Of a stretch of DNA of 64,000 nucleotides, positions 8,854 to 64,000 are shown piece by piece (the stretch's first letter is position 1; each line of letters opens with the position of its first letter). The translations under genes were made by a program, and so were the position numbers. The notes under the pieces were generated by a model. That model made no database searches, was not told where the DNA came from, and saw only the letters and a list, made by a program, of their open reading frames with translations. This DNA comes from an uncultured Bdellovibrionales bacterium (lineage in GTDB: Bacteria > Bdellovibrionota_C > UBA2361 > SZUA-149 > CAZDWZ01): positions 8,053 to 72,052 of the forward strand of contig CAYOOT010000004.1 in NCBI GenBank assembly GCA_964405665.1, read 5' to 3'.

Positions 8854-8912
8854 TGAATAAATTTTAAAGACATTGGCATTAAATTAATTATTATATTTTT
8901 AAAAGGTTTAAG

Positions 8913-15519: not shown

Positions 15520-15604
15520 AGGTATCTTTTTTATTTTTTATCACCATAACAGAAGTAGAATGTAATCTGAATGGGATTATTATTTATAGATTATGGAGAA
15601 CACT

Positions 15605-15982
15605 ATGTTTACAAAAATTAAAAAAATATACAGTTCAGTTTGCTTAAAAAGTTTGGAATTAGTCCATGCACACTCTAGCTTATTAATGTTTTTAATAGGT
15701 GTTGGATTTTTGAATGCTGGAATGAATGAATTAGCTCATGCTCAGGTTCCCACTGGGGCAACTGGACCACTGATCGCCAGTGCCAGAGCAACACTAGCAT
15801 GTGGTTTCATACTTTCCTATCTGGAAGGCGGGTTTGGTGCATTGCTTGCCGCCGGTGCAGGAATTGGAGCAGTAGTCGCTTCCGCTCTTGGTGGGTTTAA
15901 AGCAGCATGGTGTTTAGTTGTAGTTTCTGTCGGAGCTTTTATTCTAAGATCATACATCACTTTATTTAATGGAGTATGTTAA
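15605..15982 (+). CDS. VirB2/TrbC-like T-pilin paralogue 1 (small 2-TM secreted membrane protein)
   Basis: ORF 15593..15982; ATG at 15605 preferred (GGAG 6 nt upstream). Signal peptide ending AHA|Q, Gly-rich start, conserved Cys then GGFGALL...SALGGF...AWCLVVVSVGAFIL, C-terminal Cys. Pattern parallels Agrobacterium VirB2 (ASA|QSAGGG...ICTFILGPFG...). Confidence 0.5.
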   Translation: MFTKIKKIYSSVCLKSLELVHAHSSLLMFLIGVGFLNAGMNELAHAQVPTGATGPLIASARATLACGFILSYLEGGFGALLAAGAGIGAVVASALGGFKAAWCLVVVSVGAFILRSYITLFNGVC

Positions 15983-15995
15983 TAAAGGTTTGACC

Positions 15996-16340
15996 ATGTC
16001 AATTAAATCAAAATGGCTTCATAATTTTTTATTTTTTGTTACCGTTTTAATCTTATTAATCGTATCGCAAGAATTTGCTTTGGCTCAAGCTGCCGGTGGC
16101 GGTGGCACAGAAGGCTATGATGATAGTAAATTTGGCGTAGCCTGTATTAGTGCTCTTAATTATCTGCAAGGAGGCTTTGGAGCATTGCTTTCAGCAATAG
16201 CAGGCTTTGCTGCAGTAATCGCTTCCGCAATGGGAGGATTTAGAATGGCTTGGGGCCTCCTTATCGTATCTATCGGATCGTTTATCCTGCAAGAATATAT
16301 GGAAATTTGGTTTGGAACATCAGCTTGTGTAGGTAGTTAA
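15996..16340 (+). CDS. VirB2/TrbC-like T-pilin paralogue 2
   Basis: ORF 15969..16340; start MSIKSKW at 15996 preferred (AAAGG upstream). Signal ALA|QAAGGGGTEG; core ACISALNYLQGGFGALLSAIAGFAAVIASAMGGF; C-terminal Cys. Confidence 0.5.
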   Translation: MSIKSKWLHNFLFFVTVLILLIVSQEFALAQAAGGGGTEGYDDSKFGVACISALNYLQGGFGALLSAIAGFAAVIASAMGGFRMAWGLLIVSIGSFILQEYMEIWFGTSACVGS

Positions 16341-16702
16341 TGAATAAGATTGCTGTTAAGATAATTTTTATTGCAGAATCCCTTCAGGAATTCACAAAAA
16401 AAAATTCCGATCTAATTCTTATTTTTCTTGGCATATTAATTCTCAGTGGTGGTTTGCTTGATGTTTCTTTCGCACAAACCGGCGGAGAAGTTTTTAAAAG
16501 TGCCGCTTCCAATATCGCTTGCAAAGTAATAACCGGGAAATTTGGCGCAATGTTAACTATTTTTTCCGGAATATTTGCCATTGTTGCAGCAGCTACTGGT
16601 TCCTATAAAGGCGCCTGGGCCTTGCTCTTTGTTTCTATTGGAGCTTTTATTTTTAAAGAATTCGTCTCGATTTTATTCAGCGGGTCGATAGCATGTACAT
16701 AA
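16340..16702 (+). CDS. VirB2/TrbC-like T-pilin paralogue 3
   Basis: Start overlaps stop of paralogue 2 (TAATG). Signal SFA|QTGGEV; core IACKVITGKFGAMLTIFSGIFAIVAAATG; C-terminal IACT. Confidence 0.5.
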   Translation: MNKIAVKIIFIAESLQEFTKKNSDLILIFLGILILSGGLLDVSFAQTGGEVFKSAASNIACKVITGKFGAMLTIFSGIFAIVAAATGSYKGAWALLFVSIGAFIFKEFVSILFSGSIACT

Positions 16703-17196
16703 AGAAAGATAAATATTTTTTTGAAATTTTACTGTTAATGTCAATATTAAGTTTATTGCCTTCAATAGCTTATGCTCAAGAAGGAGGAGGAACTGCTGCT
16801 GCTGGATTTGATACCAGTGTAATTGATTGGGCGATTGAAGAACTATGTGGACACATCACAGGAAATCTTGGTGGCTTACTGGTAACTGTAGCAGCTTTCG
16901 GCGCAATAGTTTCAGCAGCTCTTGGTTCATTTAGAGTAACTTATAGTGCAATAATTGTTGCCGTTGGTGCTTATGCGATCAGTTCAATTGAAAGTTTGTA
17001 TTTTCCTAGCGCGGCAACTGTTTGTGCCTCAGGAGCTTCTGCCGATGTTGACGGAGGAGATGCCGGACCCGCTACAGGAGGACCAGTTGCACCCCCGAGA
17101 TTGTCTACTTCTGCTCAACAAACGGCTGTTTCAGAGAGAAATACTTTATATAAAGACAAAGTTGAAGAAAACGATCCTTTTGCAAAATTAGATTAA
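16693..17196 (+). CDS. VirB2/TrbC-like T-pilin paralogue 4 with Gly/Pro-rich C-terminal extension
   Basis: Start overlaps end of paralogue 3. Signal AYA|QEGGGTAAAG; core ELCGHITGNLGGLLVTVAAFGAIVSAALGSF; extra ~55-aa tail ASGASADVDGGDAGPATGGPVAPP... Confidence 0.45.
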   Translation: MYIKKDKYFFEILLLMSILSLLPSIAYAQEGGGTAAAGFDTSVIDWAIEELCGHITGNLGGLLVTVAAFGAIVSAALGSFRVTYSAIIVAVGAYAISSIESLYFPSAATVCASGASADVDGGDAGPATGGPVAPPRLSTSAQQTAVSERNTLYKDKVEENDPFAKLD

Positions 17197-17200
17197 ATCA

Positions 17201-17563
17201 ATGTCCAGGTATAATTTTAAATTTTTTATTGGCGCTACTCTTAGTTTATTTTCCTTTCTTTTTGTATTCCTAAATTTCGCCTTAGCTGATGCCTTTGAAG
17301 AACTGGGAGCTTATTCCAGTCAAGGCTTGGCGGGAGGAAGTGCAGGTTTTGCTGATGGTGCATTCAAAGAAGCAATTTGCGATATTGTTGGTTTAATGGG
17401 TAATGAGTTGGGGGGATTTTTAACTGCTTCAGCTTTATTAATGGCTTTGGTCTATGCCGCTGTTGGTGGCTTATCGCAAACCACAGCGGCAGTTATTGTT
17501 GCTGTTTCCGCTTTTTCTTTAACTTCGATTGTTAGTTTGTATTTCGGGAGTTTTAGTTGCTAA
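17201..17563 (+). CDS. VirB2/TrbC-like T-pilin paralogue 5 (most divergent)
   Basis: Signal-like N-terminus ending ALADA; core AICDIVGLMGNELGGFLTASALLMALVYAAVGG; C-terminal SFSC. Stop TAA is supplied by the family-B MITE terminus. Confidence 0.45.
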   Translation: MSRYNFKFFIGATLSLFSFLFVFLNFALADAFEELGAYSSQGLAGGSAGFADGAFKEAICDIVGLMGNELGGFLTASALLMALVYAAVGGLSQTTAAVIVAVSAFSLTSIVSLYFGSFSC

Positions 17564-28194: not shown

Positions 28195-28566
28195 ATGGAA
28201 AAATATAAGCTTAAGGACTTTCATAGGTGGGCAAAAAAAGAAGGGCTTTCTAATAACGATCTCCTCCGAACTTCAGAAGAAATGTCTAAAGGATTATTGG
28301 GAGATAGATTAGGAGCTTACATATTTAAGAAAAGAATTGGTATTGCAAATAAAGGAAAGCGAAGTGGATTAAGAACCATCATAGTTTATAGAGACAATGA
28401 ATTTGCTATATTTATTTATGGATATGCAAAAAACGAAAAAAGCGACCTCGAACCAAAAGAACAAGCAGCTCTTAGAATTTTTGCAAAAGAACTGATTAAA
28501 TTATCGAAGGTAGAAAGAATGAAAAAAGAACAAGAAGGAATATTAATTAAGATAGTGGAAGAATAA
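28195..28566 (+). CDS. Type II toxin, RelE/HigB-like (DUF1044-type)
   Basis: 123 aa, basic; LKDFHRWAKKEGLS...GKRSGLRTII...AIFIYGYAKNEKSDL pattern. Immediately followed (3-nt gap) by an HTH antitoxin gene. Confidence 0.5.
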   Translation: MEKYKLKDFHRWAKKEGLSNNDLLRTSEEMSKGLLGDRLGAYIFKKRIGIANKGKRSGLRTIIVYRDNEFAIFIYGYAKNEKSDLEPKEQAALRIFAKELIKLSKVERMKKEQEGILIKIVEE

Positions 28567-29346: not shown

Positions 29347-29373
29347 GTAAGCGGACTTTAGTCCGCTTATTAC
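29347..29373. terminator. Perfect palindrome AAGCGGACTTTAGTCCGCTT (repeat-family half-site) acting as a bidirectional hairpin terminator
   Basis: 9-bp stem with 2-nt loop, followed by A/T-rich sequence. Sits between convergent gene ends (29299 + and 29382 -). Same motif recurs at 41951-41978. Confidence 0.5.
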
Positions 29374-37480: not shown

Positions 37481-37879
37481 TTACTCAGCAGCCACTTCTT
37501 GCTTCTCATTAGAAACAATCGCAGTACTTAAATCTTGAAACTTAGCTTGTTTAATTTTAGCAGCTTTTCCTCTTAATGAACGTAAGTAGTAAAGTTTAGC
37601 TTTACGAACATGTCCTCGTTGTTTAATTTCAATTTTTGCAACACGTGGAGAATGTAAGGGGAAAATCCTTTCGACGCCGACGTTATAGGAAACTTTTCTG
37701 ACGGTAACTGTCTCTGTAATTTTTCCACGATTGCGGCCAATCACTACACCTTCAAAAATCTGTGTTCTTTCTTTTTCGCCTTCAACAATTAGAAAGTGAA
37801 CTCTAACGGTATCCCCCACTCTAAAATCTGGAATGTCTTTTTTTAAATTCTCTGCGTTAATTTCTTCAATAATACTCAT
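37481..37879 (-). CDS. rplS: 50S ribosomal protein L19
   Basis: [59 protein letters not shown] is canonical L19. ORF-track start (38062) is too far upstream; ATG MSIIEE with GGTGGA RBS chosen. Confidence 0.85.
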
Positions 37880-38036
37880 CTCTTCCACCATTATTTTTGT
37901 TGCAAATCGGCCTAACTCTTTAAACCTATTGAAAATAAAAGTCAACTCTAGAACAATTTTCAAGATAGTAATATGCTTAAGAAGAAAAGTGTATTCATTG
38001 ATTAAGATATTATTTTTATTATACTTTATATAAAAA

Positions 38037-39296
38037 ATGCCATATTTAAGCATAGTTGCCATAGGAAATGAATTGGTTTCGGGGACAATCCTCGATAGTA
38101 ACAGTCAATTTTTATGTGCTGAATTAACTGCACTGGGCTTTCAGATTAAAAAAGTTCTTCTAGTGGGAGACAATATCAAAGAAATCTCTGCAGCAATTAA
38201 CGGAGAACTTGCGCAGTCTCAGTTAATAATTACTACTGGAGGTCTCGGACCAACTACAGACGATTTAACCCGCCAGGCGATAGCTCAAGTTGCCAACGTT
38301 GCGCTAAAGCTTAATCAAAAGGCCAAAGAGAAATTAATTGAACTTCTTGTTAAAAGAGGAAGAATTGCCAATGAAAATAATCTGCGGCAAGTAGAATTCC
38401 CCGAAGGTGCAGAAGTTATCAATAATGAACTGGGAACTGCTGATTCTTTTATCACCAAAATAAATAATGTTCCTATTATTTCTCTTCCCGGTGTTCCCCG
38501 AGAAATGAAACATATTTTTGTAAACAAACTTAAATTTTACTTGGAAAAAAATTTTAATTTAAAGCAAAAACCAGTTTCTTTAAGTTTCAGGGTCTTTGGT
38601 ATGGCTGAAGCAACTTTAGGAGAAAAAATTGAAGGGTTTAATTTGCCTGATTATATTGAAGTAGCTTATCGCCCGAATTTTCCTGACATTATTATTACTT
38701 TAAAAAATCTGGCAACCACAGATAATCAAGAAAGAACCTCTGAACTAGAAAAAATTTACCCCAGCTTAATCAGGCATCTTGGCGAAAATTTCGTTTACTC
38801 CAGAAAAGAAAAAGATTCTCTGGCTAATGTTGTTGCTAATTTACTAATTGCCAAAAAACAAACTCTGGCACTTGCTGAATCCTGCAGTGGCGGTTTGCTT
38901 GCAGATTCTTTGATCTCCATTCCCGGTGCTTCAGAATTCTTACTTTCTTCGATAGTCTCTTACAGTAACGAGGCAAAAATAAAACTACTTGGCGTGAATC
39001 CGGAAACAATAAAAACTTGCGGTGCAGTAAGCAAGGAAACAGCTCTAGAAATGGTTAAGGGGATCAAAGCAAAATTAGCTTCTGATTTTGCTCTTTCCAT
39101 AACAGGTATTGCCGGCCCCGATGGTGCTAGTGTCGAAAAACCGATAGGAACTTTTTGGGTAGGTTTAGCCACAGCTGATTCCGCAGTTGCTTTTAAATAT
39201 TGTTACCCTCAAGAAAGAAATATTTTCCGGATAATGACTGTAGCAACTGCTCTTAATTTGCTAAGAAAACAATTATTAGGCTTAGAGTTGGAATAA
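38037..39296 (+). CDS. cinA: CinA-family competence/damage-inducible protein (MoCF-type domain + PncC-like NMN deamidase domain)
   Basis: [30 protein letters not shown]...[15 protein letters not shown]-terminal signature; C-terminal CinA domain [13 protein letters not shown]. Stop TAA lies in the MITE terminus. Confidence 0.85.
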
Positions 39297-41944: not shown

Positions 41945-42242
41945 CGTTCGGAGCGCGGACTTTAGTCCGCTTATTACCAAAACTCTAAGACTATCTTTAT
42001 TTGGCTTCTCTAAATTTCTTTTTTCTTTTTAAAAATCTATTTGATAATAAGCGGACTAAAGGGCATCTCTAAAAATTAGGTAGAATAATTGTTTGGGATG
42101 TTTAAATTACGAAAATTTAATTTGTAGGGGCACCCTTTATGTGTGCCCGGCGGACCAAATAGCCAAAATAAAATATTTGTAAGAAACGGATGTTTGTTTT
42201 GTCGAATTTTTAGAGATGCCCTAAAGTCCGCGCTCCGCGTAT
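41945..42242. repeat. Composite/nested palindromic repeat cluster (outer ACGTTCGGAGCGCGGACTTT...AAAGTCCGCGCTCCGCGTAT; inner AATAAGCGGACTAAAGGGCATCTCTAAAAATT...AATTTTTAGAGATGCCCTAAAGTCCGC; half family-A element at 42123-42150)
   Basis: Direct reading of inverted repeats. Three repeat families are nested within ~300 bp of non-coding DNA. Confidence 0.65.
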
Positions 42243-49707: not shown

Positions 49708-51378
49708 TTAATTAAAAAAATTCTTACGATAACATTCTTCGCAGAGAATAATATTTTCTTTATTTGCTAAAACAGAATTAAACGTTACCTGACATTGTGA
49801 ACATTCTGTTTCAGCAATCGATAGGGGGCGCGTTTGATTGATTCGCTGATCATGCCTGCAAAAGAAACATTTTTTTGGAGCAGGCGTTTGAAGTTTACGA
49901 TATAAATTCAATTCGGCCTTAGTAATTCTATAGTTTCTGGAACATTTTTCGCAGGAGAACAATTCATTAACGATTTCATCTTTAGTCTGGGCTATTGTAT
50001 CGGGAATAATTGCCGAAGTAATAAGATATTCATCAGAGTTTTTATCTTTCCATTTGTAACAGCTTTTCTTTGCTTCTTCTTCAGTAAGTGGATGCAATTG
50101 ATTAGCCAAAGTTTCGTTATAAGCAAAAGGAGAAATATGAGCCGGAAAAAAATTACCCCACTCTTTTGTCTCTTGTAAATGAGCAATAATTTTTGGAAGT
50201 AATTTTTGATATTCTTCTTTTGAGTATTGTTTATTCAAAATACAATACTGCTGTTTTTTCATTCCCGAACAGCCAAAAAGATTTTTACTGTAAAAAGAAT
50301 TAACTGAATAAGAAACTTCCTGGCTGTACCAAACCAAAAAACTAAAAATCACTCGATAATTTTTTTCTAGATTTGTACTAAAGTATTGCAATTCGGAATT
50401 ATCAAAACAATTTGCATCAAAACAATCCTTATTACCATCTCCCAAATAGCAATAAGCACAATCTTCGGAGTTCTTTAAAGAATACGCAGCAAAACTATTT
50501 TTGCAGTTAAATAGCATATCGCCAAAAGAATTTTCGCAATTAGTAATTAAAGAGCCTCTTTTTGCCTGTTGAAAATAAAAATTATGAAATTGAGTGAATA
50601 TCTCTTTTTGCTTACTAAGATTTAAAAAATCTTCCCGCAGGCTTTTAATTTGCAAATGATATTCTTCTTTGCTTAGTTGCTGATTATAAATACAATATTG
50701 CGAATTATGAAGATTTACACAGCCAAAACAATCTCTGCAACTGTAACAATAGGCACAAAGTGTTAGATTGGAAGAGTTCTGACAATATTCACAATTCAAA
50801 CAAGAATAAAGATTTTCAGACTGAATACAATCTTTACAAAGTTCACATTTATAAACATCAAAACAATCCACTGAATCTTTGGAATAAAAAATCCTGTAAC
50901 TATAGTAACAATCTTCTGCTCCTAAACCGCCAACAACCATATAACAATTTTTATTTTCAGAGGAATAGTTCGTATATTCAGAATTTTCACTTTTCGAATT
51001 TTGAATGGCCACTTTCGGAACTCTTAAATTAAGTTCAGCAAATTGTTCAAAAAAAGTTTTTGAAAAATCAAACGGTTGACCATAAGATAAGGGATCATAT
51101 TGATCACTCCACCAAACATTTTGATCATATACTTGATAAGTAGAATCAGGGGAATAAACTGATATTAAATTTTTTCCGGAAAAATCACATTTTCTTTTAT
51201 AAAAAGAGAATTCATTGCGAAAAGCTAATCGGGATTTTTGCCGGCAATTGGGGCATAATTTAGGAAGTGGTAACTGATAGGAAATAGAATCGAGGACAGG
51301 AGAAACTTTTTTGATGAATTCAATCTCTTCTTTTCGAATTAAAAAATTTTTATTGCATTCTAAGCAGACTGAATTCAT
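49708..51378 (-). CDS. Cysteine-rich repeat protein, paralogue 1 (~556 aa, ~10% Cys)
   Basis: ORF 49708..51384 (TTG); ATG MNSVCLEC preferred. N-terminal CxxC...CPNC, conserved WWSDQYD...FDFSKTFFEQF block, central run of C-x2-C-x2-C repeats (CAYCYSCRDCFGCVNL...), C-terminal CEKC...CFFC. Confidence 0.5.
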   Translation of the reverse strand: MNSVCLECNKNFLIRKEEIEFIKKVSPVLDSISYQLPLPKLCPNCRQKSRLAFRNEFSFYKRKCDFSGKNLISVYSPDSTYQVYDQNVWWSDQYDPLSYGQPFDFSKTFFEQFAELNLRVPKVAIQNSKSENSEYTNYSSENKNCYMVVGGLGAEDCYYSYRIFYSKDSVDCFDVYKCELCKDCIQSENLYSCLNCEYCQNSSNLTLCAYCYSCRDCFGCVNLHNSQYCIYNQQLSKEEYHLQIKSLREDFLNLSKQKEIFTQFHNFYFQQAKRGSLITNCENSFGDMLFNCKNSFAAYSLKNSEDCAYCYLGDGNKDCFDANCFDNSELQYFSTNLEKNYRVIFSFLVWYSQEVSYSVNSFYSKNLFGCSGMKKQQYCILNKQYSKEEYQKLLPKIIAHLQETKEWGNFFPAHISPFAYNETLANQLHPLTEEEAKKSCYKWKDKNSDEYLITSAIIPDTIAQTKDEIVNELFSCEKCSRNYRITKAELNLYRKLQTPAPKKCFFCRHDQRINQTRPLSIAETECSQCQVTFNSVLANKENIILCEECYRKNFFN

Positions 51379-51471
51379 ATACAATTATAACAATTTTGGA
51401 ATAATATAGCATATCTTTTAAATAATAATATTCTGTTATATAGTTTAATTCTTTAATAAACGGAGTTAATC

Positions 51472-52086
51472 TTGCAAAAATATTCTGTTAAAATTTTAAT
51501 ATTTTTCCTTTTTTATTTAATTGAAGGATTTAATTATAGCGCCATGAGTCAAAACTTAGAAACAACAACTTTAGGTGGAGGATGCTTTTGGTGTATGGAA
51601 GCAGTCTATCAAGACTTAAAAGGAGTGGAGAAAGTAGTTTCCGGTTATAGCGGAGGAAATTTGGAAAACCCAACATATGAACAAGTCGCCACCGGCAGAA
51701 CCAATCATGCTGAGGTTGTGCAAATTACTTTTAATCCGCAAGTTATTACTTATCAAAAACTTTTAGAAATATTTTTCCACTTGCACGATCCGACAACATT
51801 AAATCGTCAAGGTGCCGATATTGGAACAGAGTATCGTTCCGTTATTTTTTATCATAATGAAAATCAGCATACATTAGCCCTTGAAACAATCAAGGAAATT
51901 GAAAAGCAAAAACTCTATCTCAATCAAATAGTAACTCAAGTTGTTCCTTTGGAAAAATTTTATCCGGGAGAAGACTATCAACAAAATTATTATAAAAGTA
52001 ATCCTACTAACAGATATTGTCAGTTGGTAGTTGCTGAAAAAGTGAATAAAGCGCGTAAGCTTTATCATGATCTATTTAAGAATTAA
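51472..52086 (+). CDS. msrA: Peptide-methionine (S)-S-oxide reductase
   Basis: Active-site GGGCFWCMEAVYQ and downstream GYSGGNLENPTYEQV...HAEVVQITFNP. Hydrophobic N-terminal 24 aa may be a signal/anchor or the start may be the internal MSQNLE. Confidence 0.85.
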   Translation: MQKYSVKILIFFLFYLIEGFNYSAMSQNLETTTLGGGCFWCMEAVYQDLKGVEKVVSGYSGGNLENPTYEQVATGRTNHAEVVQITFNPQVITYQKLLEIFFHLHDPTTLNRQGADIGTEYRSVIFYHNENQHTLALETIKEIEKQKLYLNQIVTQVVPLEKFYPGEDYQQNYYKSNPTNRYCQLVVAEKVNKARKLYHDLFKN

Positions 52087-52642: not shown

Positions 52643-54193
52643 TTAAAAAATGCCAATTCTGGTTTTCTTTTGCATTTCTATCAGTAAAATAGACCAATGT
52701 TTTCTGGGAATCGGACAATTTTGTCGAAGAAATGCTTTGAGTTCTTGTTTGCTAATTTTATAGGGCTTTGCACTGCTTTCGCAGAATAACTCTTTTTCAC
52801 AAAGTTCTTCTGAAAATAAAAGAAGATCATCGGGTAATTCTGTTTTTTCATTTGTATTTACCGTTTGCTCTTTTTTTAAAGAGAGTAAACCTCGATCTTT
52901 TATTTGCTGATCGGTTAATTCCACTAAAGCATAATTTGCCCAAGAATCTTGATAACAACCTTGATATAGCTCAGGAGGAAACCATTTCCCCCACTCTCCG
53001 GTTGATTGCAGATGTTTAATGACTCGCGGCAATAGATCTTCATATTCTTCTTTTGAATATTCTTTATTTAAAATACAGTAATTTTTCGTTTTCAGGAAAA
53101 AACAACCGAAAACATCATGACAACCATTATAACAACAAAAAGAATAAAAGTTGTTGCGGGCATTGCCAATTGCTCCGTCACAAAAGAAACAATTATAGGC
53201 ATTTAAGACCCCGGTCACGAAATAACAGCGCTCAGAATTCCTTGCCCAAAGGGCCGTATAACAATCACGAGCATTGTTTGAAAAAATTATATCCTTACAA
53301 TCCTCACAATTGCTGGAATAAAAAACGTTATTACAATTTTTAGAATTGGAAACATGATAGACATCCGAACAATTTTCATTTTTAAAATTTGTATTATAAT
53401 CGCGTTTATCTTTAAAAAATTCTTCCGCTGCTGCAGTTATTTCTAATTGTTGATGATATGAACCTAAATTTAAGGATTTAAAATGTCTTTCCCAGACCTC
53501 GGCTGTGACTTTTTCATTTCTAATATAGTAGCCATCTTGTGCTTGCCTTAGTCCCACACATTGAAAGCAATTTTTGCAACCGATACAATCCAAGCACCAA
53601 AAACAATCATTGCAATTTTGACAATCTTGGAGAAAACGAGAATTATAAATATTATTGCAATCAAGACAAGAATAACAAAGCTCGGAATTACTCACGCCAC
53701 TACAAAGCAGTAAATCTGTAGATGTAGAACAAAGAGCACAGTAAATACTTTCTCTAAGATTTTCACAGGCAAAACAAAGATGACAATCTTTTAGTTGTAC
53801 GCAGGCATTGACATAAGGAGAATTTTCACAATTAACTCGATTAATTGAAGGCGCATAGGATTTTCTGGCAACTTCGATAAATTGATCAAAAAATGGTCGA
53901 GAAAAATCATATTCTTGCCCGGCTCTGGTGTTGTCACATTGATCACTCCAAAACCATTCTGGAGCAACCCCAATAATCGCACCGTTCATCGACCAACGAG
54001 TAAGAATCGGAGTTTTGGTAACAGGACAAATTGTTTTTTGAAAATTAAAAGGTCCAGCTTGACCGGCAGAATAAATCCAATTCTCTAGAGCGGACTTGTC
54101 TGGAAGCGGCAGTTGAAATTCCTTAAGCAGTTGCTCTTCTCGCTCCAATACCAAAAAATCTTGTCCACTAATCGAACATTTAAGCTTTTTCAC
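52643..54193 (-). CDS. Cysteine-rich repeat protein, paralogue 2 (516 aa)
   Basis: Shares with 49708..51378 the blocks FWSDQCD...YDFSRPFFDQF, the C-x2-C-rich core (CLDCNNIY...CQNCNDCFWCLDCIGCKNCFQCVGL), and KNYCILNKEYSKEEYEDLLP / EWGKWFP. Confidence 0.5.
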   Translation of the reverse strand: MKKLKCSISGQDFLVLEREEQLLKEFQLPLPDKSALENWIYSAGQAGPFNFQKTICPVTKTPILTRWSMNGAIIGVAPEWFWSDQCDNTRAGQEYDFSRPFFDQFIEVARKSYAPSINRVNCENSPYVNACVQLKDCHLCFACENLRESIYCALCSTSTDLLLCSGVSNSELCYSCLDCNNIYNSRFLQDCQNCNDCFWCLDCIGCKNCFQCVGLRQAQDGYYIRNEKVTAEVWERHFKSLNLGSYHQQLEITAAAEEFFKDKRDYNTNFKNENCSDVYHVSNSKNCNNVFYSSNCEDCKDIIFSNNARDCYTALWARNSERCYFVTGVLNAYNCFFCDGAIGNARNNFYSFCCYNGCHDVFGCFFLKTKNYCILNKEYSKEEYEDLLPRVIKHLQSTGEWGKWFPPELYQGCYQDSWANYALVELTDQQIKDRGLLSLKKEQTVNTNEKTELPDDLLLFSEELCEKELFCESSAKPYKISKQELKAFLRQNCPIPRKHWSILLIEMQKKTRIGIF

Positions 54194-54302: not shown

Positions 54303-57300
54303 TTGTATTATCTGGGATTTTGTAAATTAATAATAGCAGCTCTGATAATGACATTTTATCAAAATGATCCCAAGACAATAGAAATAAAAAATGCTGGGAA
54401 AATACCAGCCAACTTACCCGCACCGGCTGCAGAAATCGAAAAAGCTATCTTACAACGTAATAATCAAAAAAAAGAATTAGTTTTAGAAAACAAAAATCTT
54501 CAGCAGCAGGCAGAAAAATATCAATGGTGGGAATGTCGGATGAGAGTCGGACTAATGGTCTGCGCTTCTATTCTGATTTTTTCCATTGGAGGCTATGTTG
54601 CAGTAGCTTTGGCTTCTAAAGTTGTTCTGGGATATTTAGGAACAGCTGCATTAACAACAATCGGTTCAAAGCTGGCCGTCGCCGGTTTGGCCTCAATTGT
54701 TGGTGCTGCCGCTACTCCCTTAATAGGAGCAACCACAAGAACTATTTTAAATGTTGTGGAAAATTTCAGCTTTTTTAATAGCAAAAGTTACTCTCAAGCT
54801 TATCTAGACAGCAAAGATCATTTTACCAAGGAAACTCTTTCTAAAAATCAAATTGCAGAAGATTCAATAAGTGGTTTAGGAGCGGGAGCAGCCGGGGGAA
54901 TCGGTAAATTATTTAAACCTTTTCAAGAAGTGCTGGCAAAATCCAGAAGTTTATATGCTGTTACTAGTGGTGGAGCTACAGCCTCAGTTAGTCAAGGGAT
55001 TTCTTCTCCGCTGCGGCAACTTTATCAAAGAAATGAATTGGAAAATAACTTAATTCAGGAATGTGAAGAAAATAATATTCAAGGAAAAGCCCGGGAAGAA
55101 TTAATTTTAGAAAAAATCAAAGAAAGATCTCTTGATCTGCAAGGAATGAGTACAACTTTTACTAAAGACGTTACTCAAGCATTTCTTAGCGGCGGCATTG
55201 GCGGACGATTTGAATTATCTCGTCTTAACGGAGCACAAGCTGCTTCTAAATTTGCCTGCTTAAAAGTAGATGTTGGAGATTTTGTCAGCGCTAGCGCGAT
55301 CGGACTTTTTCGTGCCCGGTGGGACACGCCGGAGATGAATTTCGATCAATTAATCGATACAACAATTCAAGAAACAGGAAATAATTTTAAAAGTGTGATT
55401 CAAGCTCGATATGCGGTGAATCCAGAAAGTGCGAGAAGACGAGGGGAAAGGACTATTGCAAAAAACCTCGATCAGCCCACTGCGGTAGAAAGCCCTGCTC
55501 GTGTTTTTGATGATACTCAAACATTTAGGTCGCAAAATGCTGATGATTTTTCTGTAATTGCAACGTTAACAGTAATTACTCATTATTTGAATCTTATACC
55601 CTCCCGCTATGTCAGGGATCCGCGAACATTTCTGAATCAAAATGAAGTACAACAAATTAACAGAATTGCTGCAGTTAAAGATTGTCCCTATCCCGAACAA
55701 TCTCTTCGGATGTTAGCAATGTTAGAAAAAGCAGCTGAAGTCTATTTAGTAGATCATCCTCCTGAAATGGCAGTTACTCAAAGGGAAATACATATCAGTG
55801 ATATATTTGGAACAATGACTCATACAATCTCCCTTGCCTTCTTACATTTATCTGCTGGGGATCTGTCTTTGGGCAAAAATATAAGAAATGTTGGAGACGT
55901 GCCTCATTTAAGAAAACCCCTGGAGAATGCAATTGCCTTGGTAGCAGAAGTTAATACTGCAAATGGGAGAAAAGTTATCGGATGCATCCATAGTCATGCC
56001 TACGATACTACACCGGGCAATCATATTGCTGTTAATCAGGCTCAAAATAAAATTTCTGGTATTCATATTGATAATATAACAATGCTTCCTCCATATGACT
56101 CCCGATTATTGGTTAAAGAATGGTGTCAAAGGATAGTTACAGAAATATTTTCTTCCCCGTTAAACATAAATACCGAAATCACCGCAACAGTTACAAGGCA
56201 TACTGCTTATACAACTGCATTTCCAATAATCTTTGGGGAATTAAGAAAACTTCGTCCTGATTTAAATTTTGTTTTGGAAGAAGTAAGTCATAAGGGGGTT
56301 ATCAAGATAAAAATAAAACCTTCTATTATCTTTGATTATCAGCCTTTGATTGAATCATTAAGCCTGATACCAGAATCTAGCTCTAGAAAGCGGGCTATTG
56401 ATTCCTTACTGCAGAGTAAAAATATACCAGATAGTAAAACAAGAAGACTCTTGCGGGAGGCAGTCACTGATTCTCTAATAACTATTTTAGAAAATCCCAA
56501 TCGCTGGCTCATTGATATGTATTTGCCTGATGTGAAAAAATTGCTGCCGATTATGGGAGATGATATTTTTAAAAATCCTCCTCTCAAAGAAGCTCTAAAA
56601 AAGAGCTTAGTTACCGCAATAAAAAATTTAAAGGGAGATGCCGCCTGGTGTATTTTTCAATTAATGCAAGTAAATGAGATAGAAATAGATCTGGAATTAA
56701 GAAACCGTATTGCTAAAGTGACAGATCAAGCTTTGAAAAACGCCAAATCCAAACGTGCACAATTTAATCATTCTAATGTAGATCTCGATAATACTCTAGA
56801 TTTCATAGAATTTGATCTTGCTTGGTGCAATTTAATTAGAACAATTGCCCTAGGCGAAGAAAGGCTTGCTAAAAATCAAATTTCGCATCTCTACATTTGG
56901 GTTCATCCTGAATATAGGGATTTTGGAATTTGCGACAATGAACATCATTGGCAACGTACTTATAAATTTTTGGATGAGTTAACTGAAAATCCTCAATGTG
57001 CCTTAGCTGTTTGTTCCTGGTTGCCTCAAAGAGATATTGCTTCTGTTCGTCGTCGAGCCAAAGAAGAATGGTTTACTAAAGACAAAACTGAGCGTTATCT
57101 TAAATTTGTGGAAAAGCAAGAAGAGTTTTATCGGGAAGCTCAGAAAAGATTGGGAAATAGATTTATCTTCTGGCCTACTGGAATGATTGACTTAAATAAC
57201 CCCTCTAATCATTACTATGAAGTTGATTATCTAGGTAATATTTTTAATATAGATCCTCGGTGCTTTGATAATTATAATCAGCCATTACTATTGCAATACG

Positions 57301-57431
57301 CTGATTGTTTCGGGCTCTTACCTACTGCTTGCGTTGCAGTGCAAGCTCAAGATTGCGGATTACAGCAGTATGTATTGGAAACAAATAATCATGGCACGAT
57401 GGCTCCTCCACCTGATTATCGTGGTGAATAA
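54303..57431 (+). CDS. Large hypothetical protein (1042 aa): N-terminal coiled-coil, two TM helices (~aa 80-145), ~890-aa soluble domain of unknown function
   Basis: ORF; hydrophobic stretches VGLMVCASILIFSIGGYVAVALA and LAVAGLASIVGAAATPLIGA. No recognisable catalytic motifs. Confidence 0.45.
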   Translation: MYYLGFCKLIIAALIMTFYQNDPKTIEIKNAGKIPANLPAPAAEIEKAILQRNNQKKELVLENKNLQQQAEKYQWWECRMRVGLMVCASILIFSIGGYVAVALASKVVLGYLGTAALTTIGSKLAVAGLASIVGAAATPLIGATTRTILNVVENFSFFNSKSYSQAYLDSKDHFTKETLSKNQIAEDSISGLGAGAAGGIGKLFKPFQEVLAKSRSLYAVTSGGATASVSQGISSPLRQLYQRNELENNLIQECEENNIQGKAREELILEKIKERSLDLQGMSTTFTKDVTQAFLSGGIGGRFELSRLNGAQAASKFACLKVDVGDFVSASAIGLFRARWDTPEMNFDQLIDTTIQETGNNFKSVIQARYAVNPESARRRGERTIAKNLDQPTAVESPARVFDDTQTFRSQNADDFSVIATLTVITHYLNLIPSRYVRDPRTFLNQNEVQQINRIAAVKDCPYPEQSLRMLAMLEKAAEVYLVDHPPEMAVTQREIHISDIFGTMTHTISLAFLHLSAGDLSLGKNIRNVGDVPHLRKPLENAIALVAEVNTANGRKVIGCIHSHAYDTTPGNHIAVNQAQNKISGIHIDNITMLPPYDSRLLVKEWCQRIVTEIFSSPLNINTEITATVTRHTAYTTAFPIIFGELRKLRPDLNFVLEEVSHKGVIKIKIKPSIIFDYQPLIESLSLIPESSSRKRAIDSLLQSKNIPDSKTRRLLREAVTDSLITILENPNRWLIDMYLPDVKKLLPIMGDDIFKNPPLKEALKKSLVTAIKNLKGDAAWCIFQLMQVNEIEIDLELRNRIAKVTDQALKNAKSKRAQFNHSNVDLDNTLDFIEFDLAWCNLIRTIALGEERLAKNQISHLYIWVHPEYRDFGICDNEHHWQRTYKFLDELTENPQCALAVCSWLPQRDIASVRRRAKEEWFTKDKTERYLKFVEKQEEFYREAQKRLGNRFIFWPTGMIDLNNPSNHYYEVDYLGNIFNIDPRCFDNYNQPLLLQYADCFGLLPTACVAVQAQDCGLQQYVLETNNHGTMAPPPDYRGE

Positions 57432-59021: not shown

Positions 59022-59873
59022 ATGAAAACAGAATGGGATAAATTAGCTTACCCCAGGCTTTGTGGATTACTTGCGGAAAATCCCAGTCGCTTAGGACAAG
59101 CGATGCATAATGCTGGTTTCAAATCGCTAGAATTACCTTTTGTTTACGTGGCTTTTCCTACAAAAAACCCAGAAACAGCTTTTAAAAGCATGAAAGACAT
59201 GGGTCTGAGAGGCTTTAGTATTACCATCCCCTATAAAGAAACTTGTCTTAGTCTGGTTGATGAATTGGATTCCAATGCCCAAAAAATTGCGGCAATCAAT
59301 ACAGCAATCAATGATGGTTCAAAAATAGTTGGCTACAATACCGATTATTTGGGAATTATCGAGGCCTTCAAGGAACAAAATATTAGTACTCTCCAGGGAA
59401 AAACTGTTCTCATTATCGGTGCCGGAGGTGCAGCCAATGCCGGAATTTTTGCTTTCCAACTATTGAGGGCGGAAAGAATCATCGTTAGCAATAGAAATCC
59501 GGAAAGAGCAAAAAATTTAGCAAAACAATTTGGAATTGAAAGTTGCACTTTTGAAGGGATCTCTTCTTTAAAAGGCTCCAAGATTGATATTGTTGTAAAT
59601 TCAACTCCAATCGGCTCTCATCTTCAACCCTTAAGTATCCACTTAGAAAATATGCTTTCTCCTCTACTTTCCAAAGATATTTTAGTGTTTGATATGGCAA
59701 CTCGCGAAACTAATTTAATACAAATTGCCAAGAAAAAAGGCTGTCAAACCATTTTAGGAACTAGAATGCTAATTTATCAGGCTGTAGAACAATTTCATTT
59801 ATTTACAGAACAGCAAATCGCTAGCTCAGTATTGGAGCAAGCTTTGCAGACAGAATTAAATAAAAAATTGTAA
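59022..59873 (+). CDS. aroE: Shikimate dehydrogenase
   Basis: SITIPYKE substrate motif, GAGGAANAG NADP-binding glycine-rich loop, 283 aa. Confidence 0.8.
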   Translation: MKTEWDKLAYPRLCGLLAENPSRLGQAMHNAGFKSLELPFVYVAFPTKNPETAFKSMKDMGLRGFSITIPYKETCLSLVDELDSNAQKIAAINTAINDGSKIVGYNTDYLGIIEAFKEQNISTLQGKTVLIIGAGGAANAGIFAFQLLRAERIIVSNRNPERAKNLAKQFGIESCTFEGISSLKGSKIDIVVNSTPIGSHLQPLSIHLENMLSPLLSKDILVFDMATRETNLIQIAKKKGCQTILGTRMLIYQAVEQFHLFTEQQIASSVLEQALQTELNKKL

Positions 59874-60823: not shown

Positions 60824-61729
60824 CTAGTGATTTACTAATCTTTTGTGCATTTCTCCTAGGTCGGCGGGACTATAAAACTCAAGGATCAATTTGCCCTGCC
60901 CTTTTTTACTGGAATTTCTTTGCAGTTGAATCTTTGTTCCTAAAGCTCGTTGAATTTCATCAACTAGTCTTTTGTCTTCTGGACTAAGTTTTTTGTTATT
61001 GGGACTGATCCGGGTTTTGGCAACTGTCCCACTGTGGGACACACCAGCAGAGTCATCCTCACCTAGAAGCTCCTTAATTTTAACTTCTAAAGCATTGCGA
61101 GAATAGTCTTCTAGTTTTTCTAGTAAGTCTTTTCTCAATGCACGATCTTCAATTTTAGCTAAAAGCAAAATTTTTGTTTCTGCAGCTCCGCTGAGTAAAG
61201 CTGCTTGCAGGTCATCAGGTAAATCCAAGAGATCAAAACTGCGCTGCACCAAACTCTTGGATGTTCCTAGCTTTCTGGCAATTTCACGTACACTCCAAGA
61301 ATAGCGATCTCGAAGCTGCCCTACGGCAGTTGCTCTTTCAAAAGGACTTAAATCTTGTCTTTGAATATTTTCTACAAGTTGTTTAGCTAAAGTGTTTTTT
61401 TCTTCATTGTCTTCAACATCAATAATCGCTGGTATTGTATCTAGCCCTAAAAGCCGACAAGCCCGCAGCCTTCTTTCTCCAGCTATAACTCTGTATGTCC
61501 CTCCAGCAGTTACCCGAACTAAAATTGGATTTAAAACACCATATTCTTTAATTGAGGCAGCTAGTTCTGCTAAGGCTTCGGTATCAAAGGAGCGGCGAGG
61601 TTGATCGGGGTCAACATCTACCTCAGACAAGGAGATTACCCGGTAAGGACTTCCCGCCTTCGTTCTTGCTTCCAAACTAGGGCCGGCCAAGAGTGGATTA
61701 ATCTCAAATTTCAAATTTTTACGCGCCAT
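60824..61729 (-). CDS. parB: ParB/Spo0J-family partition protein
   Basis: ParB box GERRLRACRLLGLDTIPAII, HTH VREIARKLGTSKSLVQRS. Overlaps parA by 11 nt. Confidence 0.85.
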   Translation of the reverse strand: MARKNLKFEINPLLAGPSLEARTKAGSPYRVISLSEVDVDPDQPRRSFDTEALAELAASIKEYGVLNPILVRVTAGGTYRVIAGERRLRACRLLGLDTIPAIIDVEDNEEKNTLAKQLVENIQRQDLSPFERATAVGQLRDRYSWSVREIARKLGTSKSLVQRSFDLLDLPDDLQAALLSGAAETKILLLAKIEDRALRKDLLEKLEDYSRNALEVKIKELLGEDDSAGVSHSGTVAKTRISPNNKKLSPEDKRLVDEIQRALGTKIQLQRNSSKKGQGKLILEFYSPADLGEMHKRLVNH

Positions 61730-62552
61730 TTAAAATCTCCTTCGCTAAATTTAAATAATCCTCTGCACCAAAAGATTTGTTATCGTATTTAAAAATAGAA
61801 ACTCCTTGAGCAGGAGCTTCAGCCAGAGCAACATTAGTTCTGACTATTGTTTTAAAAACCAAATCTCCAAAATACTCTCTTACTGTATCAGCCACACTAC
61901 GGGCTAAGCGTCTTCTAGCATCATGAAGACAAAGCAAAACTCCACCTACAGATAACGCTGGATTATAAGCACTGCGCACTTGATCAATTGTATCTAAGAG
62001 CTGCCTTACACCATGTAGTGCTAAAAATTCACTTTGTACAGGAACAATTACTTTAGTTGAAGCAACCAAACCATTTAAGGAAAGAAGTCCAAGAGATGGT
62101 GGGCAATCAATTATAATAAAATCATAATCATCAATTACTTCCTGCAAAGCTTTCCTCATCAACTGTTCCCGACCAATCATTCCTCCTAGTTCTAGATCTG
62201 CGGCGCTAAGCAATAAACCAGCTGGTGCTAAAGAAAGATTATCTTCTATCGGGACAATGATATTTTTCATTTTCTCCCCATAGCGTAGGACATCATACAT
62301 TGTGGGAGAACTGCCCTGCTCATCATTAGGATAACCCATATGGGCAGATAAATTTGCTTGAGCATCGGTATCGACAAGCAAAACTTTTTTTCCTAAATAA
62401 GCTAGGCCCGCTCCTAGATTAGCAGAAGTAGTGGTTTTCCCTACTCCGCCCTTTTGATTTACTACGGCAAATACTTTATGTTTCACTAGATATTGGCTAA
62501 ATTTTGAAGGATTAATAAGTAAAAAATATTGCTTTTCAATAGCATACTGCAA
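61719..62552 (-). CDS. parA: ParA/Soj-family partition ATPase
   Basis: Deviant Walker A NQKGGVGKTTTSANLG. True start may be the internal GTG (VKHKVFAV...), which gives a typical ~255-aa ParA. Confidence 0.85.
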   Translation of the reverse strand: MQYAIEKQYFLLINPSKFSQYLVKHKVFAVVNQKGGVGKTTTSANLGAGLAYLGKKVLLVDTDAQANLSAHMGYPNDEQGSSPTMYDVLRYGEKMKNIIVPIEDNLSLAPAGLLLSAADLELGGMIGREQLMRKALQEVIDDYDFIIIDCPPSLGLLSLNGLVASTKVIVPVQSEFLALHGVRQLLDTIDQVRSAYNPALSVGGVLLCLHDARRRLARSVADTVREYFGDLVFKTIVRTNVALAEAPAQGVSIFKYDNKSFGAEDYLNLAKEILNGA

Positions 62553-62699
62553 TTTTAATTACGAGAAGAAGTCCCAATTATCACTAAAATTTAGTTTAAG
62601 TTAGATAAAGTTTCTAATATTTTTGCAGATTAGCACTAGATCTACCAAAAAAACCTTTATATAAATTAATTAGTTAGCCCAATGCACGATTCTTGGTTG

Positions 62700-63020
62700 G
62701 CAATCATAGTGAAATGAACTAAATTAGCTATAGTGTTTTGAAATAAGTATCTCTTTCGTGCTTTGAAATAAGCAGATTGCAGGATCAAATTCTTTACTTA
62801 ATATAGCTGGAGACTCAAAACTATAGTGTTTTGAAATAATAAAGGTTTCTTATCGTGAAACAAGATAAGAAAGGTATTTTCCAACTAAGAACTATAGTGC
62901 TTTTAGTTAAGTCTATCGTGCTTAAGCTTAAGCAATACCGGGTAACAAAATAAGTGCTCAAGTGTTTTGAGATAAAGGGTATCGTGTTCTGAGTCAAATT
63001 ATATCGTGTTTTGAAAGAAA
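62700..63020. repeat. Iteron array: ~9-10 direct copies of an 18-19-bp motif (consensus approx. ATMGTGTTTTGAAATAAG), followed by an AT-rich stretch; plasmid-type origin (oriV-like)
   Basis: Read directly: ATAGTGTTTTGAAATAAG (62729), TCGTGCTTTGAAATAAG, ATAGTGTTTTGAAATAAT, ATCGTGAAACAAGATAAG, ATAGTGCTTTTAGTTAAG, ATCGTGCTTAAGCTTAAG, CAAGTGTTTTGAGATAAAG, ATCGTGTTCTGAGTCAAAT, ATCGTGTTTTGAAAGAAAT. Located between parA and a rep-like gene. Confidence 0.6.
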
Positions 63021-63189
63021 TTTTACGGCTTAAGTATCTATTTTTATTGCTATTTTTTCCTCTGTACTCATATACTTAGATATAAAACTTTTGTTGTTAA
63101 AACTAATAGTACCTTGTAATAAAATAATCAAACGAAAGTTGATATTTTAAGTAAATTAAAGTTGAATAGAGAAAAGCAAAATAGGATCG

Positions 63190-64000
63190 ATGCCGGAACT
63201 TAGAGAAAAAAATTTTCAAGAACAAGAGAAGCCTTTAAACGCAGCGCTCTTAGAACGGGATAAAATCCCAATGTTTTCTCCTGCCAAAACATCAGGCAGC
63301 GTAAACTTTGGTTTTTCTCGCGATGAAATGAATTTGGCAGAGTTTCCGCTTACAGTGCTCTCAACGAGATCCGATCCTAAAATTAAAACTCTGGAATTCT
63401 CTGATCAGCTAAGAAACAAAGATGGAGAGTTGATTGAAAGAAAATGGATTATCACCGGCGCCGATAAATTCGGGCTTCCTACTGCAACAGATGATGATGT
63501 TATTTTGGGGCTGATTCGCCTGAGTATGGACGAAGGTTTTCGCGACCGTAAAATATACTTTACACGTTATGAATTGCTAAAAGCCTTGCAGTGGACCACC
63601 GAAGGAAGAAATTATGGGCGATTGACTAAAAGCTTAGATCGCCTCAGCGGAGTGAGAATTCGTGCCACCAATTCCTTTTATGATAATAGCTCCAAGTCTT
63701 ATCAAACCTGCAATTTTGGCATTATCGATGCTTATGAAATCAACGATAATCGCGGGAAGAAAGAAGGAGAAAATTCCGGAAGTTTTTTCATCTGGAGCGA
63801 GATGATCTTTGATTCTTTTAAATCCGGCTTTATTAAAAAAATAGATTTGGATCTTTATTTTTCCTTAAATAGTGCCGTGAGCAGGCGTTTATATCGTTAT
63901 TTGGATAAACATTTTTATTATCGCTCGGTGATTGAAAAGCCATTGATGGAATTTGCTTTTGAAAAATTGGGACTTTCTCGCACGTATCGCTATGTTTCTT
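63190..64000 (+). CDS. Plasmid-type replication initiator protein (RepA/RPA-like), 5' part; gene continues beyond window end
   Basis: Manual translation from ATG 63190: MPELREKNFQ...NLAEFPLTVLSTRSDPKIKTLEFS... with no stop to position 64000. The N-terminal NLAEFPL motif and position downstream of iterons suggest a Rep initiator. Confidence 0.5.
   Translation, partial: MPELREKNFQEQEKPLNAALLERDKIPMFSPAKTSGSVNFGFSRDEMNLAEFPLTVLSTRSDPKIKTLEFSDQLRNKDGELIERKWIITGADKFGLPTATDDDVILGLIRLSMDEGFRDRKIYFTRYELLKALQWTTEGRNYGRLTKSLDRLSGVRIRATNSFYDNSSKSYQTCNFGIIDAYEINDNRGKKEGENSGSFFIWSEMIFDSFKSGFIKKIDLDLYFSLNSAVSRRLYRYLDKHFYYRSVIEKPLMEFAFEKLGLSRTYRYVS

Follow-up and report, generated by a model that had tools for sequence, protein, structure and literature searches.

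A plasmid-type Rep–iteron–parAB locus as the probable replication origin of a chromosome-scale replicon in an uncultured Bdellovibrionota clade

One end of a 64,000-nucleotide stretch of contig CAYOOT010000004.1, from an uncultured Bdellovibrionales bacterium (the whole stretch is termed the window), carries the partition genes parB and parA, a spacer filled with direct repeats, and the 5′ part of rep, a gene for a replication initiator of a plasmid family. The locus raises the question of what it replicates. A sequence-only reading of the window described an oriV-rep-par layout of plasmid type rather than a chromosomal oriC, pointed out housekeeping genes on the same contig, and offered three alternatives: a megaplasmid or chromid, a chromosome that had absorbed a plasmid, or a chromosome using a plasmid-like initiator. 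We propose, from comparative sequence analysis, that the locus is probably the working origin and partition locus of a chromosome-scale replicon that has been inherited vertically within an uncultured Bdellovibrionota clade. A recently absorbed plasmid is effectively excluded, and a chromosome or a clade-wide chromid remain from the three alternatives.

The 270 codons of rep within the window match the RPA family (Pfam PF10134) with 71.6 bits against a cutoff of 27, residues 44–241 aligning with positions 1–182 of the 228 in the profile, and this bears out the partial initiator-like gene suggested by the sequence-only reading. A weak match to TrfA was also found. RPA is a winged-helix plasmid initiator family that was functionally identified on pBTK45 (10.1101/2024.01.22.576637) and is the main replicase of Planctomycetes plasmids, where it is found beside putative iterons (10.1101/2024.01.22.576637, 10.1101/2024.09.03.610885). 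Full-length relatives of the window's Rep comprise ∼430–470 residues, are all metagenomic, and all contain PF10134. Because the rep open reading frame (ORF) in the window is incomplete, the fold was compared using a homologue, P0005 (468 residues, 75% identical to the window fragment), the AlphaFold2 model of which has a mean pLDDT (predicted local distance difference test) of 80.9, a well-defined core (∼residues 34–310) and a separate helical domain (∼366–445). Foldseek comparison of this model with the PDB returned domains 2–3 of RctB as the best match (E value 1e-8), followed by many RepE54–iteron complexes (E∼1e-4, target-normalised template-modelling scores of 0.61–0.69), with nothing significant beyond RctB and RepE54. 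When the Rep alignment was used as a profile against PDB sequences, no significant match emerged. On the basis of the profile and the model, Rep is an RPA-family initiator with a predicted RepE/RctB-like winged-helix fold and a predicted function in replication.

The spacer between parA and rep is 703 bp long and non-coding (62487–63189). The approximately ten direct repeats and the AT-rich tract reported in the sequence-only reading are both present, the former as eight clear and two degenerate copies of ∼20 bp. A repeat search of the window gave families of 5–6 copies of ∼20 nucleotides between 62727 and 63022, and a weight matrix that was trained solely on the spacers of other species and then run on the window found the eight clear copies, the last three of which are spaced by exactly 22 bp. 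Repeats of the same kind at unrelated loci would, according to the sequence-only reading, have spoken against an iteron array. Besides the direct copies, the matrix found one inverted copy in the spacer and one strong outlying site inside parB, and it gave only three weak matches (7–8 bits) in the other ∼63 kb of the window. The degenerate pattern WMGTGNTTTKRRA occurs five times, always within 62731–63016, while shuffled sequences lead one to expect 0.76 occurrences and never reach five; the repeats are not a dispersed family.

The iterons are conserved across the clade with the consensus TATCGTGAATTGAAATAA, and in the longer consensus TATCGTGAATTGAAATAAAA the positions beyond the search pattern are conserved too. 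The core [AC]GTG-N3-[CT]GA is found at 6.1 per kb on the plus strand of 77 spacers versus 0.23 per kb outside them, a 27-fold enrichment. Minus-strand copies are present in spacers at 1.7 per kb (7-fold enriched in the relatives) and precede the direct array on the side of parA. The distance between cores is most often 22 bp (63 pairs) or 23 bp (15 pairs), with further peaks at 44/45 and 66/67 bp. The spacer therefore has the direct repeats of ∼17–22 bp, phased with the DNA helix and adjoining rep, by which iteron-type origins are recognised. In 66 of the 77 species the 80 bp of lowest GC content follow the last iteron on the side of rep, and the AT-rich tract at this position is a candidate for both the DNA-unwinding element and the rep promoter, the unwinding being proposed from its composition and placement. 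The AT-rich leader at the opposite end of the spacer is presumed to be the parAB promoter region. Promoter-like hexamers within the AT-rich tract (63047–63076 and 63097–63125) did not exceed the number expected by chance. The RPA initiator, the RepE/RctB-like fold, the phased iterons and the AT-rich tract on the rep side are together in keeping with the plasmid-type layout originally described. In 42 loci from outside the clade (L118–L173), the core is also ∼6-fold enriched (1.3 per kb) upstream of Rep genes with ≤51% identity, and the DNA recognition code may be partly common to the wider Rep subfamily.

For the analysis of strand composition all loci were oriented with rep on the plus strand; the flanks of the relatives extend for 10 kb and the window itself supplies one side of 64 kb. 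The GC skew, which the sequence-only reading had singled out as a check, changes sign in the spacer. It averages −0.080 to the left of the locus and +0.038 to the right. The left value is the lower in 46 of 48 species, and in 40 the skew is negative on the left and positive on the right. Averages over 40 species in 500-bp bins were negative in all 16 left bins and positive in 15 of 16 right bins, and the cumulative skew bottomed out in the bin that directly precedes the conserved rep region, namely at the iteron spacer. Among independent metagenome contigs with adequate flanks the left skew is negative in 11 of 11 and the right skew positive in 8 of 9. Genes tend to point away from the locus, with 411 on the minus and 105 on the plus strand to its left and 279 on the plus and 175 on the minus strand to its right. 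The skew is not merely a product of this divergent transcription, as the plus-strand skew at third codon positions (GC3 skew) has the same sign for both gene strands on each side (−0.079 for plus-strand and −0.093 for minus-strand genes on the left, +0.051 and +0.062, respectively, on the right). Throughout the 64 kb of the window, GC3 skew on the plus strand is negative in all four quarters and for the genes of either strand.

The experimentally supported oriC of Bdellovibrio bacteriovorus sits at the cumulative-skew minimum (PMC5124646). Since oriC coincides with this minimum in the phylum (PMC5124646), the sign of the switch points to an origin rather than a terminus. A terminus was considered and rejected, given the excess of G on the plus strand to the right of the locus, the excess of C to its left, and the outward direction of the genes. 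A cumulative minimum together with divergent genes is common to all bidirectional origins, DnaA-dependent or not.

With one genome scanned per GTDB species, a Rep relative was present in 455 genomes, of which the best 80 (58–79% identity) were analysed. All 80 are metagenome-assembled genomes labelled Bdellovibrionota, Bdellovibrionales, Oligoflexia or ‘Deltaproteobacteria’. The contigs that carry the Rep relatives range from 0.1 to 1.87 Mb, with others of 709 kb and 412 kb. A scan of metagenome contigs added 17 loci with Rep identities of at least 61%, and all 17 keep the same synteny; the best Rep relatives are 79% identical in genomes and 78% in metagenomes, and an exact 45-mer from the iteron array had no match in metagenome contigs. 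As determined by tblastn, the order and orientation of parB, parA, spacer and rep are retained in every adequately flanked locus of the ∼97. The parA gene is always directly upstream of parB (ParA identity of 59–83%), ParB is 45–69% identical in each related locus with sufficient left flank, and a polyprenyl synthase gene usually adjoins parB, as it does in the window.

Several measures bear on the inheritance of the locus. The GC content of the flanks varies from 0.32 to 0.61, and that of rep tracks it (r=0.92). Correlations between the pairwise distances of Rep and those of other proteins are r=0.92 for ParA, 0.89 for ParB and 0.74 for the adjoining polyprenyl synthase. Permutation was applied to two of these pairs (Rep versus ParB and Rep versus the synthase), and in neither did any of 999 permutations yield a value as high as the real one. 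Of the three locus proteins Rep shows the greatest conservation, with a mean p-distance of 0.27 compared with 0.29 for ParA and 0.44 for ParB, and by this comparison is under strong constraint. The annotated flanks of the relatives encode SMC, FtsY, a fusion of RRM and ribosomal protein S18, flagellin, an SLT transglycosylase, a Mur-ligase-like protein, inositol monophosphatase and a sigma-54 regulator, and no integrase, transposase, conjugation or transfer genes were seen among them. The locus, judged from these alignments, is old and vertically inherited in the uncultured Bdellovibrionota clade. It is the ∼97 syntenic loci, the co-divergence of Rep with a neighbouring housekeeping protein, the lack of mobility genes in the annotated flanks and the skew switch that effectively exclude a recently absorbed plasmid.

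Rep relatives with ≤51% identity lack the parB-parA-spacer-rep synteny, and the closest Reps in PLSDB (≤40% identity) are from plasmids of Planctomycetes, Rubrobacter and Deinococcus. The picture is one of a mobile-element initiator family, one branch of which appears to have been fixed in a chromosome-scale replicon of a Bdellovibrionota clade. Two distant members were found in other settings. P0118 (43% identity; locus L089, chromosome of Bryobacterales F-183, 2.43–2.46 Mb) is encoded in an island with integrase, toxin–antitoxin, restriction–modification and transposase genes, and P0114 (45% identity; locus L090, JGI Ga0558066_0000302, 195 kb) on a jumbo-phage-like contig that encodes a T4 baseplate protein, Gp23, ribonucleotide reductase and CTP synthase.

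E. coli DnaA, DnaN, RecF, RpmH and RnpA were used as tblastn queries, and nothing was found in the window and 86 loci (1.41 Mb). The window spacer contains no DnaA box with ≤1 mismatch, and DnaA boxes are not clustered in the spacers compared with the sequence outside them (0.28 versus 0.20 per kb with a strict and 2.1 versus 1.4 per kb with a relaxed definition); 46 of the 77 spacers contain at most one relaxed box. The cluster of DnaA boxes beside dnaA or dnaN that defines a canonical oriC is thus missing near the locus, in agreement with the sequence-only reading. DnaA boxes are common in proteobacterial iteron plasmid origins, including those of F, pSC101, P1 and RK2, although they are not universal, and no such boxes were found in the origin described here. 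In cultured Bdellovibrionota (B. bacteriovorus, B. exovorus and Halobacteriovorax marinus) oriC has the gene order rnpA-rpmH-dnaA-oriC-dnaN-recF-gyrB, and that of B. bacteriovorus has eight DnaA boxes, all in or beside a 232-bp spacer, of which two fall within the 3′ end of dnaA (PMC5124646). Assemblies of Silvanigrellaceae (Pigmentibacter) are reported as rotated to dnaA. The oriC of the cultured species resembles the present locus in its position at the cumulative GC-skew minimum and in having parAB close by (∼6.5 kb away), but at the present locus no dnaA, dnaN, recF, rpmH or rnpA was found within 10 kb and no canonical parS was found nearby.

The ParA/ParB pair noted at the window edge was confirmed by Pfam and TIGR matches. 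The likely start of parA is a GTG at 62486, the mechanically called ORF extending to 62552, and parA overlaps parB. ParB has the GERRLRA box, a helix-turn-helix (HTH) and a C-terminal dimerisation domain, and its best PDB sequence matches are Spo0J, ParB and Noc. The pair therefore has the proteins of a chromosomal ParABS system, namely a Soj-type ParA and a ParB with an N-terminal CTP-binding domain (GERRxRA), HTH and C-terminal dimerisation domain. Both its domains and its closest PDB matches place ParB with the chromosomal Spo0J type rather than with a typical plasmid type. Hence the plasmid-type module proposed in the sequence-only reading holds for rep and the iterons but not for ParB, with the qualification that ParB scores ∼100 bits whether it is compared with chromosomal ParBs from the PDB or with its counterpart on plasmid pPL62-2, such that the ancestry of the par genes is undecided by score.

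The parS sites that were to be counted according to the sequence-only reading did not materialise: the canonical sequence (TGTTNCACGTGAAACA) has 0 matches with ≤3 mismatches in the 64-kb window, and with ≤2 mismatches it is present within 10 kb in only 2 of 77 species. Perfect palindromes of 12–16 bp and repeated near-palindromes were tried as alternatives, and none was common across species. One 16-bp palindrome, GCGGACTTTAGTCCGC, occurs twice in the window in identical form (29351–29366 and 41955–41970, 12.6 kb apart). It was rejected as an alternative parS, not being conserved in relatives, and may be a hairpin terminator or a protein-binding site.

Iteron-like sites are also found outside the spacer. 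A site within the parB coding sequence of the window, at ParB codon ∼200, is common to the loci L007, L008, L018 and L020, and in 54 of 73 species at least one strong iteron-like site lies within 2.5 kb past the 3′ end of parB. Such sites (13–24 bits) fall in or just past parB, in the zone −4000 to −2000 from rep, in 54 of 73 loci, many of them within coding sequence, and the parAB operon thus appears to be bracketed by Rep-type sites.

The gene identities, the iteron architecture and its conservation, the composition switch, and the lack of dnaA, dnaN and a DnaA-box cluster nearby were computed directly. By analogy with RepE, pi, TrfA and RctB-type systems, we infer the binding of Rep to the iterons, the unwinding, the recruitment of helicase, the control of initiation and the role of the outlying sites, as follows. 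The rep gene would encode a tandem winged-helix initiator of the plasmid RPA family, monomers of which would bind the ∼20-bp iterons at 22-bp spacing, or two helical turns, in the parA–rep spacer. The resulting nucleoprotein array, probably with host architectural proteins, would melt the AT-rich tract on the rep side, and the replicative helicase would be loaded there, possibly via the extra C-terminal domain of Rep. Forks would then depart in both directions, and the divergent parAB operon would segregate the region of the origin once it had been copied. Inverted and outlying iterons are probably involved in autoregulation and/or in copy control by handcuffing, as in P1, F and Vibrio chromosome 2.

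Comparison with characterised systems shows where the locus is conventional and where it departs from them. The initiators of RPA plasmids (pBTK45 of Tetrathiobacter kashmirensis and plasmids of Planctomycetes; 10.1101/2024.01.22.576637) belong to the same Pfam family, and these plasmids likewise have iterons and a low-GC stretch beside rep with ParA/ParB nearby. However, the Rep described here is ≤40% identical to any Rep in PLSDB, and its gene lies among housekeeping genes on Mb-scale contigs, at a GC-skew switch, and is fixed in a clade. Moreover, parAB is divergent from rep here, while on pPL62-2 it is downstream and co-directional. The best structural match to the predicted Rep core, RctB at ori2 of Vibrio cholerae chromosome 2 (PDB 5tbf and 5ubf), is likewise a plasmid-like initiator with iterons, its own parAB, additional initiator-binding sites outside the minimal origin, and a large replicon with essential genes. 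RctB is only 13% identical in sequence to Rep and is in a different Pfam family, it has extra domains, 39-mer regulatory sites and a dependence on crtS of chromosome 1, for none of which a search was made here, and Vibrio has a demonstrated DnaA-driven chromosome 1. RepE of the F plasmid has the tandem winged-helix fold of the predicted Rep at 10–14% identity, and pi of R6K and RepA of pPS10 are dual winged-helix iteron initiators like RepE. Origins of the RepE type similarly have direct repeats with ∼22-bp phasing, an AT-rich element beside them and an inverted copy with a possible part in autorepression, but Rep here is larger (∼450 residues), the extra C-terminal helical domain being predicted at ∼366–445 of P0005. 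Finally, secondary replicons of the RepA/TrfA type in Azospirillum and other Alphaproteobacteria are large and combine initiators that match RPA/TrfA profiles with parAB. They belong to another phylum, coexist with a recognised DnaA chromosome and vary in set between strains, whereas the present locus is fixed and syntenic across a deep clade.

Several points weigh against a working origin. The closest relative, L007, with a GC content of 58%, has no skew on either side. The origin call is drawn from composition and gene orientation, over flanks of only 10 kb in the relatives and one 64-kb side in the window. The 80 and 17 loci are from related species, and the counts given above are therefore not independent events. 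The centromere of ParB was not found by canonical parS and palindrome searches of the window and the relatives. Many iteron plasmids need host DnaA, and a degenerate DnaA contribution at the spacer may be present.

If the locus is a working origin, the replicon could be a chromid, that is, a plasmid-derived secondary replicon with core genes that exists beside a main chromosome with dnaA-oriC. It could also be the sole chromosome, on which a plasmid-derived Rep/iteron system replaced DnaA-oriC, with dnaA either lost or kept for other roles. We regard the two as about equally probable, each falling somewhat short of an even chance. A chromid combines a plasmid-type replication system with core genes, and both are present here (rplS in the window; S18, FtsY and SMC in the flanks of relatives). 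Rep, iterons and parAB are the standard toolkit of chromids, the predicted Rep fold is near that of RctB of Vibrio chromosome 2, and RPA/TrfA-type RepA was used to identify the replication proteins of secondary replicons in Azospirillum (10.64898/2026.09.14.751567), which we count in favour of a chromid. The lack of a canonical parS near ParB would be expected if the system were orthogonal to a main-chromosome ParABS, and cultured Bdellovibrio and Halobacteriovorax use dnaA-oriC (PMC5124646). Of bacteria, ∼10% are multipartite, whereas free-living bacteria without DnaA are extremely rare (PMC7198777). On the other hand, a literature search found no multipartite Bdellovibrionota, one contig is at least 1.87 Mb long, L19, S18, FtsY, SMC and AroE are encoded within ∼25 kb of the origin in different members, and the synteny around the origin is deep, with no mobile genes in the annotated flanks. 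These points against a chromid are not decisive.

A sole chromosome is consistent with an iteron spacer at which, in nearly all species, skew reaches its minimum and genes diverge, with parAB adjoining the locus as at ordinary chromosomal origins, with the conservation of Rep, which is like that of ParA and above that of ParB, and with the core genes close by and the 1.87-Mb contig. It is also consistent with the lack of dnaA, dnaN, recF, rpmH and rnpA, which flank oriC in cultured relatives, within 10 kb in ∼80 species, although the search for dnaA covered only ∼1.4 Mb surrounding the locus. An imported partition system would account equally well for the missing canonical parS. The prior for a sole chromosome of this kind is very low, and we know of no natural bacterial lineage for which a plasmid-type Rep has been documented as the initiator of the main chromosome. 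The very low prior for free-living bacteria without DnaA and the non-canonical centromere favour a chromid. In favour of the main chromosome are the 1.87-Mb contig, the many core genes concentrated around the origin, the depth of the conserved synteny and the want of reports of multipartite Bdellovibrionota. In its full form, the latter would mean that an entire widespread clade of uncultured Bdellovibrionota replicates its only chromosome from a plasmid-derived iteron/RPA-Rep origin with an imported or re-specified ParABS, DnaA having been displaced and perhaps lost; on the sequence evidence, this is conceivable but rather doubtful.

Two further explanations fare much worse than a working origin. 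The locus could be the remnant of an integrated plasmid or integrative and conjugative element, with silent or accessory iterons and rep and the real, canonical oriC elsewhere. Distant RPA homologues do occur in integrated islands, such as that of Bryobacterales F-183 beside integrase, toxin–antitoxin and restriction–modification genes. A remnant is nevertheless very improbable given that strand composition switches in the spacer regardless of gene orientation, synteny extends over ∼97 loci with a GC content of 32–61%, integrase, transposase and conjugation genes are absent from the annotated flanks, the distribution is not patchy in the clade, and Rep is strongly constrained. Least probable of all is that the window comes from an ordinary plasmid or a small megaplasmid, which would account for the classic rep/par layout and for RPA, the commonest replicase of Planctomycetes plasmids, but not for relatives on contigs of 0.1–1.87 Mb, for a window with rplS, aroE, msrA, an AddAB-like helicase–nuclease and bactofilin and with no transfer genes among the ORFs scanned, or for the lack of any PLSDB Rep with >40% identity.

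Replication from DnaA-oriC is regarded as close to universal among bacterial chromosomes, with reduced symbionts and some cyanobacteria as the known exceptions, and plasmid-type initiators are known to run chromids, for which RctB of Vibrio is the model. A literature search on Bdellovibrionota and Oligoflexia with dnaA, dnaA loss and chromids found nothing on the present clade. The locus would place a Rep/iteron origin of a plasmid family at a composition switch in about a hundred species-level lineages of a phylum in which the species in culture rely on dnaA-oriC. Were this the only chromosome, the locus would represent a natural and ancient replacement of the initiator, akin to a permanent ‘integrative suppression’, and the rewiring of the cell cycle around Rep could be tested. 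To such a natural replacement of DnaA-oriC on a main chromosome we give about one chance in three. In the case of a chromid, the architecture would be the first multipartite one that we could trace in Bdellovibrionota, and a new RPA-based counterpart of Vibrio chromosome 2. In either case, origin prediction anchored on dnaA and DnaA boxes would misplace the origin in these genomes.

The features of the locus and the housekeeping genes of the window, all four of which were located as the sequence-only reading had stated, are compiled in Table 1.

Table 1. Features of the origin and partition locus and housekeeping genes in the 64-kb window (a dot marks features without strand).
Feature	Position	Strand	Evidence and remarks
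galU-like	8913–9782		
rplS (L19)	37481–38062	−	TIGR01024, 151 bits
msrA	51472–52086		
aroE	59022–59873		
parB	60824–61729	−	ParB_N 94 bits, HTH_ParB and ParB_C (Pfam); TIGR00180 152 bits
Outlying iteron-like site GATCGTGCATTGAGAAAAGA, inside parB coding sequence	61128–61147	−	21.5 bits, matrix from other species
parA	61719–62486	−	Small Walker-type partition ATPase, 255 residues; Pfam AAA_31 186 bits and CbiA
AT-rich leader, parA side of spacer	62487–62671	.	GC 0.23–0.30, composition profile
Inverted iteron copy AATCGTGCATTGGGCTAACT	62672–62691	−	11.6 bits, weight matrix
Direct iteron array	62705–63021	+	8 matrix-supported and 2 degenerate copies
Matrix-supported direct iterons 1–4	62705–62724, 62729–62748, 62754–62773, 62822–62841	+	
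Matrix-supported direct iterons 5–8	62851–62870, 62958–62977, 62980–62999, 63002–63021	+	
Degenerate direct copies	62892–62911, 62913–62932	+	Seen by repeat search only, not by matrix
AT-rich tract	63022–63189	.	Composition profile; GC 0.20–0.27 measured over 63020–63170
rep, 5′ 270 codons, runs past window end	63190–64000	+	ATG at 63190; Pfam RPA PF10134

The rplS ORF comprises 193 codons and its match to TIGR01024 covers residues 63–173, such that either the start is over-called or the protein has an N-terminal extension of ∼60 residues, and the gene stands apart from the usual rpsP-rimM-trmD-rplS cluster. A block of four genes, which encode a sigma-54 response regulator, a LarC2-like protein, an NTP-transferase and an AddAB-like PDDEXK–UvrD fusion (1881 residues in the window and 2101 in L001), is found in the window at 6982–15519 and in L001 at 1–6615. 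In L001 it adjoins the polyprenyl synthase gene and parB, and in the window it is inverted and ∼45 kb farther from the origin, a difference that suggests rearrangement in its vicinity. Five consecutive, tightly packed ORFs of 120–167 codons on the plus strand (15593–17563) have no Pfam match at E≤1e-5, and the same is true of the ORFs at 54303–57431 (1042 residues), 49708–51384 (558 residues) and 52643–54193 (516 residues). A gene for a RelE-family toxin (28195–28566, plus strand; PF06296, 107 bits) lies ∼34 kb from the origin. Among the relatives, the ORF for the fusion of RRM_1 and ribosomal protein S18 (L084, 16447–17007; L004, 16459–17022; 11 related loci) lies ∼6–7 kb to the right of the origin, and an ankyrin-repeat protein of 323 residues (L062, 3046–4014, and 12 other loci), conserved in a subclade, is encoded ∼6.3 kb to the left of rep, which hints at interaction with eukaryotic hosts.

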